Part shown: one piece after another, positions 57,726 to 63,115 of the stretch
Layout: every line of letters starts with the position of its first letter
How positions within the stretch are numbered: the first letter of the stretch is position 1
Origin: a virus
Taxonomy: Duplodnaviria > Caudoviricetes
Length of the DNA: 64,000 bases
Virus record (IMG/VR): IMGVR_UViG_3300037448_000016
Span: 1 to 64,000 of that record
Direction: 5' to 3' (one strand)
Made by a program: the position numbers and the translations under genes
The notes under the pieces: generated by a model
Databases searched by the model: none
The model's input: the letters and a program-made list of their open reading frames with translations, nothing else
What the model was told of the DNA's origin: nothing

Positions 57726-57730
57726 GGTTC

Positions 57731-57760
57731 ATTGTAAGCGTCCAGTCAGTGACTTGTCAA
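57731..57760 (-). promoter_or_regulatory. promoter TTGACA-N18-TACAAT, leaderless
   Basis: Near-consensus; 11-bp TGAC repeat. Confidence 0.8.
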
Positions 57761-57764
57761 CTAC

Positions 57765-57885
57765 TGGACAAATAGAGAGAGGCCGATCGCATGGCCTCTT
57801 CAGGCGTTTGCGTTCGGCCCCTCTCGGCGGCGGCCAACCCTGGGATGAGGTTTGACGACGACGACCCAGTTTCGCAGCACCGCTG
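57765..57885 (-). ncRNA. putative sRNA with GUCGUCGUCGUC loop
   Basis: Upstream TTGACA-N17-CATAGT; CUGGG/CCCAG stem with 20-nt loop; GAGA tetraloop hairpin; GAGGCC/GGCCUC terminator-like hairpin; no ORF. Confidence 0.5.
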
Positions 57886-57891
57886 TGGTCA

Positions 57892-57920
57892 ACTATGGGC
57901 GATGGTCAGCCCGTTGTCAA
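57892..57920 (-). promoter_or_regulatory. promoter TTGACA-N17-CATAGT
   Basis: TTGACAACGGGCTGACC phage motif. Confidence 0.55.
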
Positions 57921-57921
57921 C

Positions 57922-58236
57922 CTAGACGCGCGAGGTCGGCTCACCAGCCGACACCACGATCTCGGTCACCTCGCCGGTCACGACGTCAATCGCCAGGCTG
58001 CCCTGGAAATTGACCGTGCCGTCGCCGTCCGGGTCGTCGTTCACGGTCACGACGGCGGTGCCGAGGGTTCCCGTGGTGACGACCAGCGCGGTGCCGTCGC
58101 CGTTGTCGGTCAGGGTCAGGATCGACTCGTCGTCCACCGTGAACGCCAGGCCGGTCGGCTGGATCGGTACCGGGTTGCCAGCGGCATCCACACCGGAAAC
58201 GGACAGGGTGACCTGCTGGGAATCGAGCAGTTGCAT
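57922..58236 (-). CDS. small Ig-like acidic protein (the ORF may extend to 58488)
   Basis: RBS AGGAG before MQLLDSQQVTLSV..DAAGNP; beta-sandwich pattern. Confidence 0.7.
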   Translation of the reverse strand: MQLLDSQQVTLSVSGVDAAGNPVPIQPTGLAFTVDDESILTLTDNGDGTALVVTTGTLGTAVVTVNDDPDGDGTVNFQGSLAIDVVTGEVTEIVVSAGEPTSRV

Positions 58237-58844
58237 GGTGACGTCTCCTAGGTGAGCGGAACTCGCCGGGCGGTGCTTCCGCTTCCGGCGGTGAGGGTTT
58301 CCAGAGAGTGGGCGGCTGGTGACAGGACCGATCGTCCAATGCACCCCTCCACGGCGAGGCGGGCCCGCGAGCGGGACAGCGGTCGTCGTGGTGGTCACCG
58401 TCCAGCCGAGCGGGAATTGGCTCGACAGGTCCATGAGTGGCAATTCGATGACGCACCTCCCGGTAGCGAAATCAGGGTGCCACAGCAACGGCCGAACGGG
58501 CGAGTACGGACACAGAAACGGCCCACCGGGGTCGAGTCCGGTGAGCCGTCCTGCCAGACAGATAACACGCTGTCAACCGTGGCGTTTACCGGCCGCTCGC
58601 CCTGTCCGCCGTGCGGCTACGATCCAGTCATTGACCGGGCGCGATGTCGCAACGGTTTCCAGATCTGGGATCCTACACCGGATGGTGCCCGGAGCGCACC
58701 CCGCCGGGCCGGGTGGAACGACGGATCTGGAGCACCACTCCATCACCGTCGAGTGCTGGGCCGCGATCCGGGTTCCACCCCGGGCCGACCGTATGGCGCT
58801 CAGTTCGCAGTCTCTGGCCTTGCGGCGTAGTGCTGCTCACCTTC

Positions 58845-58907
58845 TGCGTGCCCCTGCCGGTCTCGAACCGGCTCGACGGGTGCTCCACCGTCTTTAACCT
58901 AATGGGC
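58845..58907 (-). ncRNA. tRNA-like module (T-arm GCCGG-TTCGAGA-CCGGC, stemless D-loop)
   Basis: GCCCAT/AGGGGC acceptor-like stem, TAGGTTAAA, GACGG/CCGTC arm. Confidence 0.5.
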
Positions 58908-59084
58908 GCGTCCGCCCGGGGCTTGCGACCGGCGGTAGGCACCGGGAGGAACCGAAGTCCCCCATCGGGGAGACGCTATGCGCCCCGAACCCATACCACC
59001 GGCCCACCAGGCACTGCCGTCCTCGGTCTCCGGGTCTGGAACCAGGTTCCTTTACGGCTGGACCTACACGCGGCAGTGCTTGGC

Positions 59085-59159
59085 TGGTGGAGCCCCAGGG
59101 AATCGAACCCCAGTCGGTTTCCGCCGAGATAACTCGGCCCCCTGCTGCCAGCGTGCCCC
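59085..59159 (-). ncRNA. tRNA-Ala-like / tmRNA tRNA-like-domain RNA with encoded ACCA
   Basis: GGGGCAC...GG-TTCGATT-CCCTG-GGGCTCC-A-CCA; G3.U70 pair; no canonical D stem or 7-nt anticodon loop. Confidence 0.65.
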
Positions 59160-59230
59160 TTGACCCTCAGCGTCCGCCGGAGGATCGCTCCAACGCTGCG
59201 AGGGTACAGCCGGTTGGGGCTGCGAGACAC

Positions 59231-59271
59231 AGTCTTCCACGCTTGACTGGACGCTGTCAAGGTTTTGTCAA
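59231..59271 (-). promoter_or_regulatory. tandem TTGACA x2 (11 bp apart); promoter TTGACA-N18-AAGACT
   Basis: Direct reading. Confidence 0.55.
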
Positions 59272-59774
59272 TTGCCAATGCGGTCTCGCTTGTCCAGGTT
59301 GCAGCCCAAATGAGCCAGTTGGACATTGGCCAGCACGTGCTTGCCACCGCGCGAAATCGGGAACCGGTGATCGAGGCTTTTGCTCGCTCGATCCGGATAC
59401 TCCAGCGTCATATCCACCAGTCCGCCGCAGAGACGGCACGTCCAGCCGTCGCGGCGGGCGACCTCCGTCAGCAGGATGCGCTCACCGGAGTCCATCTGTG
59501 CTCGGCGCCGGTGGTAGGCATCGCGGCGCCGGTCATTCCAGCCACCAGCCGATTCGTACTCGGCCGCGTAGTCCCGAGGCGGACGTGACTCTTTCAGGTG
59601 GGTGTTGCAGAGACCTTTCGCGCGATGCGGCCGGTTGCAGGATTTCCGCGAGCAACGGCGGGGGTTCGCTCGCTCCTGGCATTGCTTGCAGCAGTACAGC
59701 CTGGGGCGGCCAGATCCGGTACGGAATGGGAGCAAATTGGCGCATGGAAAGGCTTGACAGGTCGTTGTCGTCAC
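59268..59774 (-). CDS. HNH endonuclease (packaging-associated type)
   Basis: RDGWTCRLCGG...SLDHRFPISRGG.H...NVQLAHLGCN. Confidence 0.85.
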   Translation of the reverse strand: MTTTTCQAFPCANLLPFRTGSGRPRLYCCKQCQERANPRRCSRKSCNRPHRAKGLCNTHLKESRPPRDYAAEYESAGGWNDRRRDAYHRRRAQMDSGERILLTEVARRDGWTCRLCGGLVDMTLEYPDRASKSLDHRFPISRGGKHVLANVQLAHLGCNLDKRDRIGN

Positions 59775-60145
59775 GGCTTCAGCCTACCAGTTCACGCTCC
59801 CCCGTGCGACGCCCCGACAATCAACTGACAACTGACTATTTGAACCAACTTGTGGAAAAAGTGCTCTCCCCCTTAGGTCCAGGCGCGCGAGGCGGGGAGG
59901 GGGCGCCCCCCAGGGTGGGGCCCGAGCCGAGCCGGAGCCGCAGCCCCGAGGCGCCCTGTGGTCAGCCGCTTGACAAGCCGTGGTCAGCCGTGAGAGGGTG
60001 GCCCCATGCCGCAGTGAGGGGCACCCGGAAGGGGCTCGCACAGCAGCAGCAGCACCCCCGCTGCACCCCTGCACCGCACGGAGCCTCGCTCCCTCTGCAC
60101 AGCACGGGTCCGGAGGGGCAGGCACCACAGCACGGCAAGGCAGGC

Positions 60146-60176
60146 TTGACAAGCCCCTGACAAGGGCTGGTAAGGT
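60146..60176 (+). promoter_or_regulatory. promoter TTGACA-N19-TAAGGT
   Basis: TTGACAAGCCCCTGACAAG repeat. Confidence 0.6.
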
Positions 60177-60410
60177 ACGACCAGCACCACCGAGGACCGC
60201 ACTACATGCAAGAGCCGTGTGCCGAAGGCGCCCGTGAGCGGACCCCCTGCGACAGGACCCCCTTGTCGCTAGCAGGGACCTACGCTCCGAGCCACGCTAG
60301 GCCGTACGGAGGGTGAGGGTTCCCAACGCTGAAACGCGGGAACGCCGTAACCGACCACAGGGGAGTCCTGTGGGAGGGGCGTTCAAACCGGGCGGACGGA
60401 ACGCGATCCA

Positions 60411-60463
60411 CCCCCCCGGACCTACGGAACACGGTAGGCGGGCTGCGAGAGCCGCCGGGGGGG
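60411..60463 (+). repeat. diverged copy of the three-way-junction element
   Basis: CCCCCCCGG/CCGGGGGGG, CCTAC-GGAACACG-GTAGG, GGC-TGCGAGA-GCC. Confidence 0.55.
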
Positions 60464-60475
60464 CTAGTCAACGGC

Positions 60476-60505
60476 TTGACAAGCCGCTGACAAGCACGCT
60501 AAGGT
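60476..60505 (+). promoter_or_regulatory. promoter TTGACA-N18-TAAGGT
   Basis: TTGACAAGCCGCTGACAAG repeat. Confidence 0.75.
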
Positions 60506-60550
60506 TCCACCACGACGACGACGCACCGACACCGCCCCTGGAGGCAACCA

Positions 60551-61090
60551 GTGAAGTACCGCCGCACCCGGACCACTCGCACGGCCAAGATCGTGATCGG
60601 CCTTGCCGCAGCAGCAACGGCGATCGTGAGTCAGACACAGCACGCCGAAGCCGCCACTACCGACAGCGTGGCCTGGGGCAAGGCGCTCACGCTCTGCCAG
60701 ACCGTGAAAGCGTATGGACCGCACGAAGAGTGCGTGGTCGGCGCCACCGTGAACGCCACGGGGAGGGTGCTGACCGGCGACGACTATCACATGAGCAAGA
60801 CGGGGCTGGTCCTGGACCACGCCACCCGGCCGATCACGTCAACGGTGAGCAAGCCGACCACGGCGGACAGGGCTCGCATGGTGACGGCGAACGCCGAGTG
60901 CAAGAGCGTGCCGAACCATACCGTCAAGTGGTCAGCATGCATCACGGGCAGTGCGAACGCCAACGGTGGTGACACGGCTTTCGTGACGTCGGCTGACTGG
61001 TTCGCCATCCGGGTACGTCAGCACGTGGGGTACACATGGAAGGCGTACGCCGTCCACCACGCTCACGCTCTGGTCACGCCCCTGCCGTAA
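60551..61090 (+). CDS. secreted Cys-containing hypothetical protein
   Basis: Signal peptide (KYRR...AEAA), RBS GGAGG. Confidence 0.7.
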   Translation: MKYRRTRTTRTAKIVIGLAAAATAIVSQTQHAEAATTDSVAWGKALTLCQTVKAYGPHEECVVGATVNATGRVLTGDDYHMSKTGLVLDHATRPITSTVSKPTTADRARMVTANAECKSVPNHTVKWSACITGSANANGGDTAFVTSADWFAIRVRQHVGYTWKAYAVHHAHALVTPLP

Positions 61091-61096
61091 GGCACA

Positions 61097-61145
61097 GGCC
61101 GGAGGACCGCGAACACGGCGGTACGGCTCGACACCTCCTCCGGCC
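61097..61145 (+). repeat. 49-nt structured intergenic element, copy A
   Basis: GGCCGGAGG-ACCGC-GAACACG-GCGGT-ACGGCTCGACACCT-CCTCCGGCC. Confidence 0.85.
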
Positions 61146-61179
61146 ACTCGACCCACCAACGACGAAAGCGAGGCGCGAC

Positions 61180-61824: not shown

Positions 61825-61875
61825 GCCTCTGGCAGCGCACCTCGACGGCGCTACGGCTCGAATCCGGCCAGGGGC
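61825..61875 (+). repeat. structured intergenic element, copy B (51 nt)
   Basis: GCCTCTGGC-AGCGC-ACCTCGACG-GCGCT-ACGGCTCGAATCCG-GCCAGGGGC. Confidence 0.85.
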
Positions 61876-61907
61876 ACGCACACCACTCCGACAACGAAAG
61901 GCCCATC

Positions 61908-62673: not shown

Positions 62674-62679
62674 AACCCG

Positions 62680-62728
62680 GCCTCTGGCACCGCGAACACG
62701 GCGGTACGGCTCGAATCCAGCCAGAGGC
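62680..62728 (+). repeat. 49-nt structured intergenic element, copy C
   Basis: GCCTCTGGC-ACCGC-GAACACG-GCGGT-ACGGCTCGAATCCA-GCCAGAGGC. Confidence 0.85.
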
Positions 62729-62785
62729 ACGCAAGGCAAGAGCGGAAGTCCTTGCCTCCCACCCCAACTCACCCAGGAGAGCACC

Positions 62786-63028: not shown

Positions 63029-63034
63029 AACTCA

Positions 63035-63083
63035 GCCTGGCGGACCGCGAACACGGCGGTACGGCTCGACACCGCTGCCAGGC
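63035..63083 (+). repeat. 49-nt structured intergenic element, copy D
   Basis: GCCTGGCGG-ACCGC-GAACACG-GCGGT-ACGGCTCGACACCG-CTGCCAGGC. Confidence 0.85.
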
Positions 63084-63115
63084 ACGCACACCACCCCGAC
63101 GACGAAAGGCGCATC

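Follow-up and report, generated by a model that had tools for sequence, protein, structure and literature searches.

A structured non-coding RNA locus with tRNA-like modules between the HNH and packaging genes of an uncultured soil actinophage

The minus strand of the IMG/VR virus record IMGVR_UViG_3300037448_000016 carries about 800 bases without a gene (58450-59267) between an HNH endonuclease gene and the genes for packaging, and the question raised by this locus is which RNA, or which RNAs, it would make. The record (77.9 kb, 66.5% GC) is designated W here and the window, that is the whole stretch of DNA analysed, comprises its bases 1-64000; loci and contigs fetched from other IMG/VR and metagenome sequences carry L-numbers, and features of the locus lie on the minus strand unless stated otherwise. 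A preliminary description of this DNA had proposed one ornate RNA of about 700 nucleotides (nt) or, as a fallback, a processed cluster. Our analyses confirmed a real structured non-coding RNA locus and supported the proposal that it is promoter-driven and contains modules mimicking transfer RNA (tRNA). The description was thus partly upheld, and the evidence favours the fallback: with a probability of roughly 0.55, the locus encodes a polycistronic non-coding precursor that would be cut by RNase P and RNase Z into several RNAs.

Analysis of GC at third codon positions (GC3) indicated that its periodicity collapsed over about 58250-59150, where the spread between frames was at most 0.22 as against 0.35-0.54 in the flanking genes. 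Substitutions relative to the relatives were spread evenly across codon positions (18/19/21 and 34/32/32) and indel lengths were not multiples of three, which bears out the earlier statement that no credible open reading frame (ORF) is present. An antisense frame over the 3' domain of the locus (block C) was open in three of three genomes (109-120 codons) and was rejected as coding on account of frame-breaking indels and non-periodic substitutions. Folding of the whole locus gave z = -2.75, and sliding windows of 150 nt gave z between -0.5 and -2.3; the excess of structure on energy alone is modest, and the compensatory changes seen in the comparative analysis appear to be the stronger support for structure. 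ARAGORN found no genes in the window, no Rfam family matched in the window at gathering scores and RF00005 had no match across the 77.9-kb genome, so that W is without a canonical tRNA. The Rfam search agrees with the preliminary description that no known class can be assigned.

Two close relatives, L073 and L074, were found by means of the protein of 104 amino acids (aa) encoded downstream of the locus. L073, a contig of 76 kb, matches W at 97% identity over 59666-59157 and at 90% over 58869-57901, and L074 is 72-78% identical to W; no further close genomes were present among the 5.8 billion proteins searched. A genuine tRNA-Met(CAU) lies downstream of the same promoter and ahead of the packaging genes in about 12 IMG/VR and metagenome contigs whose terminases show 65-89% identity, and in one relative lineage (L076-L078) a tRNA-Arg(ACG) takes its place.

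The putative promoter lies at 59231-59260, where the preliminary description had placed it, and overlaps the region of the HNH stop codon. It consists of a -35 element TTGACA (59260-59255), an 18-nt spacer containing the inverted repeat TTGAC-N8-GTCAAG and a -10 element AAGACT (59236-59231), and transcription is predicted to start near 59225. A generic sigma-70 scan did not call a promoter at 59260-59231. The arrangement TTGACA-N18-AAGACT with its inverted repeat, together with a downstream GTGTC..GCA that forms the first bases of the leader, is kept in nine relatives, and the inverted-repeat motif gave nine matches (five sites) in the window against 0.78 expected, four of the five sites falling within 59.2-60.5 kb.

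The 5' leader of about 65 nt (59160-59226; z = -2.74) folds into hairpins at 59223-59206 and 59205-59163 and ends with GAGGGUCAA, directly abutting a module designated tRNA-like #1. It is almost unchanged across W, L073 and L074, and its inner hairpin is GGAG/CUCC in W and GGCGAC/GUCGUU in L074. All of these leaders have ...GGGUCAA at their 3' end, and one of three unrelated tRNA-like modules starts immediately after it, without an intervening base; the leader of L076 has the same ...GGGGUCAA end and is followed from the next base by the true tRNA-Arg. This position therefore behaves as a 'tRNA slot', which holds tRNA-Arg in L076-L078 and non-decoding mimics in W, the tRNA-Met of most other relatives lying farther downstream of the same promoter.

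Alignment of W with L073 revealed that 287 nt (59156-58870) are swapped for 59 nt in L073, completing there an 85-nt cloverleaf with a G3:U70 pair that ARAGORN labels 'tRNA-???'. The replaced segment comprises the T-arm module of tRNA-like #1, a 9-base-pair (bp) helix, a UUCG hairpin and most of tRNA-like #2, whose T-arm, from about 58869, still aligns with its L073 counterpart. In L074 the order of modules is permuted, with the homologue of #2 first, the hairpin module M3 farther along, and two or more additional tRNA-shaped modules also present. Because of this replacement and this shuffling, most of the helices listed in the preliminary description are to be regarded as dispensable, separately evolving cassettes. 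The start of block C, CGCAGA(A/C)GG, lies 0-2 nt from a tRNA-like 3' end in W, L073 and L074, the upstream unit being #2 in W, the 85-nt cloverleaf in L073 and L074:566-652 (z = -3.2) in the third genome. It is these junctions, base-exact around a freely exchanged middle, that constitute the main argument for a precursor cut at tRNA-shaped units. New here is a 'tRNA slot' filled wholly with non-decoding mimics, together with a narrowly distributed RNA domain of about 340 nt. In addition, the segment missing from L073 is bounded on each side by a copy of the 9-mer GGGGCACGC (59151-59159 and 58846-58854, minus strand), and a recombination event across these copies would join the leader straight to block C.

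Block C (58505-58848) begins with CGCAGAAGG next to the tRNA-like 3' end. Its elements are a GCAA-capped hairpin (58826-58817), a long hairpin with a hypervariable tip (about 58790-58700), an invariant GCCCGG-CGGGGUGCGCU-CCGGGC, a covarying hairpin AUCC-GGUGUA-GGAU (58683-58670) and an invariant GGACAGGGCGAGCGGCC..UAAACGC (58607-58580). Identity to W is 90% in L073 and 72% in L074. The consensus fold of the three sequences has 83 pairs with 93.5% of cells paired, and 11 pairs are changed on both sides, compared with 4.3+-1.6 in column shuffles (one of 500 reached 11) and 0-3 in slid controls. This compensatory support sits in the tip of the long hairpin, in the 58683-58670 hairpin and in the terminal hairpin. 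The helix GGGUGGAAC/GUUCCACCC is present as described, 58780-58772 pairing with 58719-58711, and it gains an A.C mismatch in L073 and retains only 6 bp in L074. A compact form of block C in L076-L078 has CACGCAGAAG at its 5' end, then GGACnnGGCGAGCGGCCnnUAAAACGC, a hairpin and UUUCGUGUGUCC. Taken together, the alignments provide moderate evidence that block C is a structured RNA. No Rfam family matched block C of W, L073 or L074. Among some 200 fetched loci, nhmmer queries with the entire locus and with a profile of block C returned only L073 and L074. An exact 18-mer of block C occurred in 6 viral stretches and in over 120 from metagenomes, all of them unrelated.

The closing 12-bp hairpin was likewise found where it had been described (58549-58518). 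It carries a conserved loop, ACUCGACC, kept in four sequences, and is followed by UUUCUGUGUCC; its stem differs in L073, L074, L012 and L076 and stays paired, 8 of 26 pairs being compensatory in the five sequences. The hairpin may act as an intrinsic terminator, though a weak one, or be one arm of a 3' multi-branch that GGACA (58607-03) and UGUCC (58512-08) close. In a generic terminator scan the stem was present and the tail, UUUCUGUG, was below the criterion of 5 T in 8, and the hairpin is not called because its U-tract is too weak.

Between the leader and block C, W carries four modules. The first, tRNA-like #1 (59085-59159, 75 nt), has an acceptor, a T-arm and an encoded CCA, the anticodon arm being replaced by a hairpin. 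The second, M3 (59011-59079; z = -3.24), is closed by the 9-bp helix GCACUGCCG/CGGCAGUGC, in which 59079-59071 pairs with 59019-59011 as had been described, and has a conserved interior ...GUAGGUCCAGCCGUAAAGGAAC... that is 95% identical to L074:492-549 in genomes that are elsewhere 72-78% alike; its closing helix is retained in L074 with changed pairs and a bulge, and is absent from L073. A 22-mer of M3 had no match in viral contigs. The branched module M4 (58923-59010; z = -1.29) includes the UUCG hairpin, GGGGGAC-UUCG-GUUCCUCCC, which was recovered at about 58963-58945. The C(GCAA)G loop noted at 58922-58927 is better regarded as the junction into tRNA-like #2, and a cleaner GCC-GCAA-GGC hairpin is the one at 58826-58817.

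The fourth module, tRNA-like #2 (58849-58922, 74 nt; z = -4.09), is a four-way junction without CCA, made of an acceptor-like GCCCC/GGGGC, a D-like hairpin, a conserved single strand ..GUUAAAG.., a GACGG/CCGUC hairpin and a T-arm, with a loop of 8 nt at the anticodon position. Its homologue L074:193-262 folds alike, and among 19 shared pairs three are changed on both sides and two on one side. Both T-arms of the preliminary description were found, UGGGG-UUCGAUU-CCCUG (59112-59096) in #1 and GCCGG-UUCGAGA-CCGGC (58872-58856) in #2. The 3' half of #2 and its AGGGGCACGCA tail resemble three-way-junction repeats of about 50 nt that occur on the opposite strand at 61-63 kb. These lie on the plus strand at 61095-61157, 61826-61885, 62678-62740 and 63033-63095 and share the ..GGCUCGAAUCCGGCCAGGGGCACGCA.. 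tail with #2, including an exact 12-nt match between 58856-58845 and 61869-61880. Judging from this resemblance, the repeats may be reduced versions of the module family of #2.

From these observations we infer the following course of events. Transcription would start near 59225 from the family promoter (59260-59231), and host RNase P would cut between the leader and the first tRNA-shaped module as it does on pre-tRNA. A variable array of cassettes would come next, consisting in W of tRNA-like #1, the two hairpin modules and tRNA-like #2. Processing of the last tRNA-like by RNase Z or RNase P would make the 5' end of block C at CGCAGAAGG, and the terminal hairpin at 58549-58518 would form or protect its 3' end. 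If both cuts take place, at the leader end and at the block C start, the first role of the tRNA-like modules would be that of processing punctuation. Block C would be either a stable structured RNA or a leader.

Module #1 is probably also an effector. Its acceptor has 5 bp, GGGGC/GCUCC with G3:U70, followed by an A.G mismatch; the T-stem has 6 bp with the loop UUCGAUU, and the discriminator A (A73) precedes the encoded CCA. The acceptor, the mismatch and the T-stem add up to a coaxial stack of 12 positions, as in a tRNA. The D-region of 13 nt is unpaired, and at the position of the anticodon arm there is a hairpin, GCCGAG-UUAU-CUCGGC, with 6 bp and a 4-nt loop. Neither #1 nor #2 has a 7-nt anticodon loop, ARAGORN and RF00005 (cut-off 29 bits) returned neither of them, and ARAGORN called #1 neither tRNA nor transfer-messenger RNA (tmRNA); #1 cannot decode. 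With the alanine identity pair G3:U70, A73 and CCA on a minihelix that does not decode, #1 has the layout of an isolated tmRNA tRNA-like domain (TLD); it could be alanylated, and it could bind or titrate SmpB, EF-Tu or other tRNA-binding host factors.

Homologues of #1 exist outside the close relatives. It is 81% identical to L010:923-995, and model R1 detected it in W, L010 and L013, with the T-stem and the middle hairpin altered yet paired. The T-stem CUGGGG/CCCUGG becomes CAGAGG/CCUCUG in L010 and L013, in both of which the middle hairpin differs in sequence, its loop being 5-6 nt long, and the module sits after tRNA-Met. Model R1 found no further copies in the remaining relatives identified by the large terminase (TerL), and blastn with the 75-nt query gave only T-arm similarity to ordinary tRNAs.

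The possibility that #1 belongs with the TLD-only tmRNAs was weighed against the element of mycobacteriophage DS6A, located (JN698994, 28478-28560) as a positive control on the Rfam tmRNA model. Features of that kind present in #1 are the GGGG 5' end, G3:U70, the A followed by CCA, the T-loop UUCGAnU, and a P2-like helix in the absence of an anticodon arm; its alignment to the Rfam tmRNA model runs from end to end with the interior deleted. These features suggest, weakly, a resemblance to a TLD-only mini-tmRNA or alanine minihelix, class membership not being established. A permuted two-piece tmRNA was rejected, as the 5' strand of #1 is part of the module itself and there is no conserved reading frame for a tag downstream of it. 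Elements of 65-76 nt with the pattern GGGGCCG...GGUUCGAUUCC..GGGCUCCA and without an anticodon arm were also seen in unrelated IMG/VR phages (L040:2282-2930, L053:3841-3913, L059:582-654 and L067:7892-7959), that of L040 being called a doubtful permuted tmRNA by ARAGORN; on the basis of such sequences, TLD-only-like RNAs may be recurrent in phages.

Several results weigh against the processed precursor or against the part that #1 would play in it. Module #1 is thermodynamically unremarkable (z = -0.8) and its acceptor contains the A.G mismatch. The stemless D-loop motif ..GGnnUCGAC.. of TLD-only RNAs is absent in W, L010 and L013, and on the tmRNA model RF00023 (gathering 47) #1 scored 18.1 bits, compared with 34.7 for the DS6A control and 24.4 for L040. 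M4 occurs only in W, with no counterpart in L073 or L074 and no homologue. The largest helix of block C (22 pairs) is uninformative, being invariant or else broken in L074, and the covariation statistics are weak because only three or four lineages carry block C. Owing to the poor U-tract of the terminal hairpin, the transcript may read on into the next genes. Finally, genes for SmpB, Ro, a CCA-adding enzyme and RtcB are all absent from the phage, which thus offers no pointer to a tRNA-centred function.

The weak U-tract is also the starting point of the competing explanation that survives best, namely that the entire locus serves as a long 5' leader acting in cis on the AUC-start ORF and 104-aa gene downstream. 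The modules would stabilise or process the 5' end of the mRNA, or set attenuation or antitermination at 58549-58518, and no released piece would act alone. The terminal hairpin has the alternative multi-branch pairing with the downstream UGUCC, similar reduced tRNA-like junctions occur at mRNA ends elsewhere in W, and a much stronger canonical terminator is found only after the 104-aa gene, at about 57822-57772, so that the unit may run that far. A mere leader would, however, need neither an encoded CCA nor a G3:U70 acceptor, and #1 is kept in L010 and L013 in other contexts, after tRNA-Met. Since true tRNAs fill the same slot in relatives, excision of the slot content is to be expected, and we consider a purely cis-acting role unlikely.

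Still less probable, in our estimation, is a decaying tRNA cluster, that is pseudogenes left after loss of tRNA-Met or tRNA-Arg together with protein-binding DNA sites such as operators, or terminase or packaging sites close to the end of the genome, the folds being the default of GC-rich DNA. The mostly modest energy z-scores, the highly variable content between close relatives and the invariance of the longest predicted helix, which does not covary, would all fit decay, as would the short distance, about 600 nt, between the locus and a motif at which the contigs of four relatives begin. Decay does not account for the compensatory changes that preserve stems in #1, #2, the block C tip and the terminal hairpin, nor for T-loops, CCA and promoter that are strand-specific and share one orientation. 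The M3 interior, 95% conserved in a relative of 72-78% identity, and the boundaries of leader, tRNA-like and block C, which are base-exact in three genomes, are also against it.

A single folded molecule of about 700 nt, a new GOLLD- or ROOL-like class as first proposed, is disfavoured and very improbable. In its favour, a promoter and a closing hairpin flank the locus, the whole folds with excess stability and the start of block C could pair with the tail after the hairpin. Against it, L073, 90-97% identical in the flanks, lacks the central 287 nt, modules are reordered in L074, the consensus fold contains no long-range helix between the 5' modules and block C, and no Rfam large-RNA model matches.

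Other candidates were tried and rejected. A group I intron in a tRNA gene gave no Intron_gpI match at E<=10 in 58300-59400 and no complementary acceptor halves. A HEARO or IscB omega-RNA beside the HNH gene matched no model, and the HNH protein has only 168 aa. As for an antisense RNA acting in trans, the rest of the genome offered at best an unconvincing match of 15 nt (E = 0.044).

The processed precursor that we favour is composite, and its parts are precedented by phage tRNA operons with extra stable RNAs, by the DS6A TLD-only RNA and by tRNA-like processing modules. The 'TLD only' tmRNA of DS6A, which is without a coding sequence (CDS), is one recorded case, and this type of RNA was reported to inhibit tmRNA, perhaps via titration of SmpB (PMC4131195, PMC11915505). 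Both the DS6A RNA and #1 come from actinophages, are about 75-83 nt long, start with GGGGC and carry G3:U70, a UUCGAUU T-loop and discriminator A; in both, a short capped helix replaces the anticodon arm or mRNA domain, and both align end to end with the tmRNA model, the interior deleted. Unlike the DS6A RNA, #1 has neither the D-loop motif ..GGUnnUCGAC nor the GGAC/GCAC that precedes the T-arm. Its acceptor/T stack is 5+6 bp and includes an A.G mismatch, as against 7+5 in DS6A, its encoded CCA corresponds to CUA in DS6A, and it shares the promoter-leader 'tRNA slot' with other mimics. If #1 acts like the DS6A RNA, phage interference with ribosome rescue would be wider than the single recorded case.

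A more ambitious version of our proposal holds that a fixed tRNA slot behind the promoter and leader swaps tRNAs (Met, Arg) and mimics, that an alanine-type, CCA-bearing TLD-only mimic disables trans-translation of the host or acts as a decoy for defences that target tRNA, and that RNase P and RNase Z cuts release a ~340-nt RNA controlling the adjacent late or packaging genes; as a whole we regard it as doubtful. Phage tRNA genes are usually framed as supplying codons or as replacing tRNAs cut by host defences. The same slot holding non-decoding tRNA shapes points to selection on shape, be it for processing, charging or binding of host factors.

In the tRNA cluster of phage T4, the species 1 and 2 RNAs are stable RNAs that are co-transcribed and have no assigned role. 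Like the locus proposed here, a T4-type operon is a promoter-driven polycistronic precursor from which RNase P and 3' nucleases free tRNA units and neighbouring stable RNAs; unlike it, W has no decoding tRNA among its units, its partner RNA is about 340 nt long, and there is no sequence relation. In the mascRNA type (MALAT1/MEN-beta, RF01684) a reduced tRNA-like in a long non-coding RNA sets the end of its neighbour via RNase P and RNase Z, as would be the case here. The mascRNA model gave sub-threshold scores (gathering 42.5) of 20.4 bits on #1 of W, 21.1 on the L073 and 15.8 on the L074 tRNA-like. That family is eukaryotic and nuclear, and the W module lies upstream of the long RNA whereas mascRNA lies downstream, so the likeness would be one of mechanism only, by analogy. 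Block C abutting any upstream tRNA-like would be a bacterial or phage parallel to mascRNA-type end formation, and this abutment provides a directly testable model for the production of defined non-coding RNAs by phages.

GOLLD and ROOL resemble the locus in being phage-borne, several hundred nt long, multi-helix and sometimes located beside tRNA genes; the locus differs from them in that it is not conserved as a unit, sharing about 340 nt in three or four lineages only, and GOLLD, ROOL and the other Rfam large RNAs gave no match at gathering score or at E<=10. A bacterial Y RNA (YrlA) likewise carries a T-arm-like module within a longer non-coding RNA. This candidate was rejected: TROVE/Ro (PF05731) is absent from the genome, Deinococcus_Y_RNA scored 13.6 bits on the T-loop against a gathering score of 80, and no Ro-binding closing stem was identified.

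With regard to the genome, the large terminase of W shares no more than 55% identity with its counterparts in isolated phages of Arthrobacter, Gordonia and Mycobacterium, on which basis W is taken to be an uncultured actinophage. Searching the locus with blastn against 50,697 isolated phage genomes gave zero matches, and peptide patterns of a downstream 177-aa protein found nothing. The record begins and ends with a 127-nt 'direct terminal repeat' (bases 1-127 and the last 127), an exact end overlap for which a circular assembly closed by k-mer overlap fits better than a true terminal repeat. In L008, L013, L014, L024 and L032 the match to the large terminase subunit is broken into 2-4 pieces lying 0.4-1.2 kb apart, which suggests inteins or introns within the gene, and L067:11157-11398 (minus strand), on an AT-richer phage contig, has a sub-threshold Rfam group I intron match (35.8 bits, gathering 50).

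Gene order at the locus, all on the minus strand, is HNH, the gene-free stretch, a small ORF with the 104-aa gene, a 334-aa gene, terminase and portal. The HNH gene (59268-59774, 168 aa; Pfam HNH E = 1.6e-5) is directly upstream. Beyond it, GC3 periodicity is weak or absent at 59780-60600, where three further copies of the promoter/operator motif TTGAC-N8-GTCAAG (59969, 60145 and 60475) and a folded segment (60351-60500, z about -3) were found; the region looks like a divergent regulatory hub with rightward promoters TTGACA-N18-TAnGGT. Four independent relative contigs start at one motif, GGG[C/G/T]AAAA..TCCACAAG..GGTTC (L010:1-30, L074:1-35, L075:1-30 and L076:1-30), whose W counterpart, TTTTTCCACAAGTTGGTTCAAATAG, is at 59836-59860 (minus strand). 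The motif looks like the physical left end of the genome, and since it lies upstream of the HNH gene, the RNA locus would be about 600 nt from this probable end.

At the 3' limit of the non-coding stretch is the small conserved ORF (58236-58449; ...FPLGWTVTTTTT...), which runs in frame into the 104-aa gene (57922-58236), the two together spanning 58449-57922. Its likely start is an AUC at 58449, 6 nt past a ribosome-binding site GGGAGG. Its protein sequence is conserved in L012 and L009, and in L074 it stands as an ORF of its own. The sequence GGAGGUG-N4-AUC is kept in eight relatives (among them L073, L074, L075, L076, L079, L012 and L009) with divergence immediately after it, and AUC therefore seems to be a conserved non-canonical start codon; the relatives' gene callers place the start of the 104-aa gene at ATG. 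The 196-nt spacer between the 104-aa and 334-aa genes (57726-57921, minus strand) has the strongest fold nearby (z = -5.1). A family promoter follows closely on the stop codon, and the spacer also holds a structured segment and a canonical terminator, GAGAGGGGCCG...CGGCCUCUCUC-UAUUUGU. Another promoter, TTGACA-N18-TACAAT, is located only 5 nt before the ATG and is thus almost leaderless.

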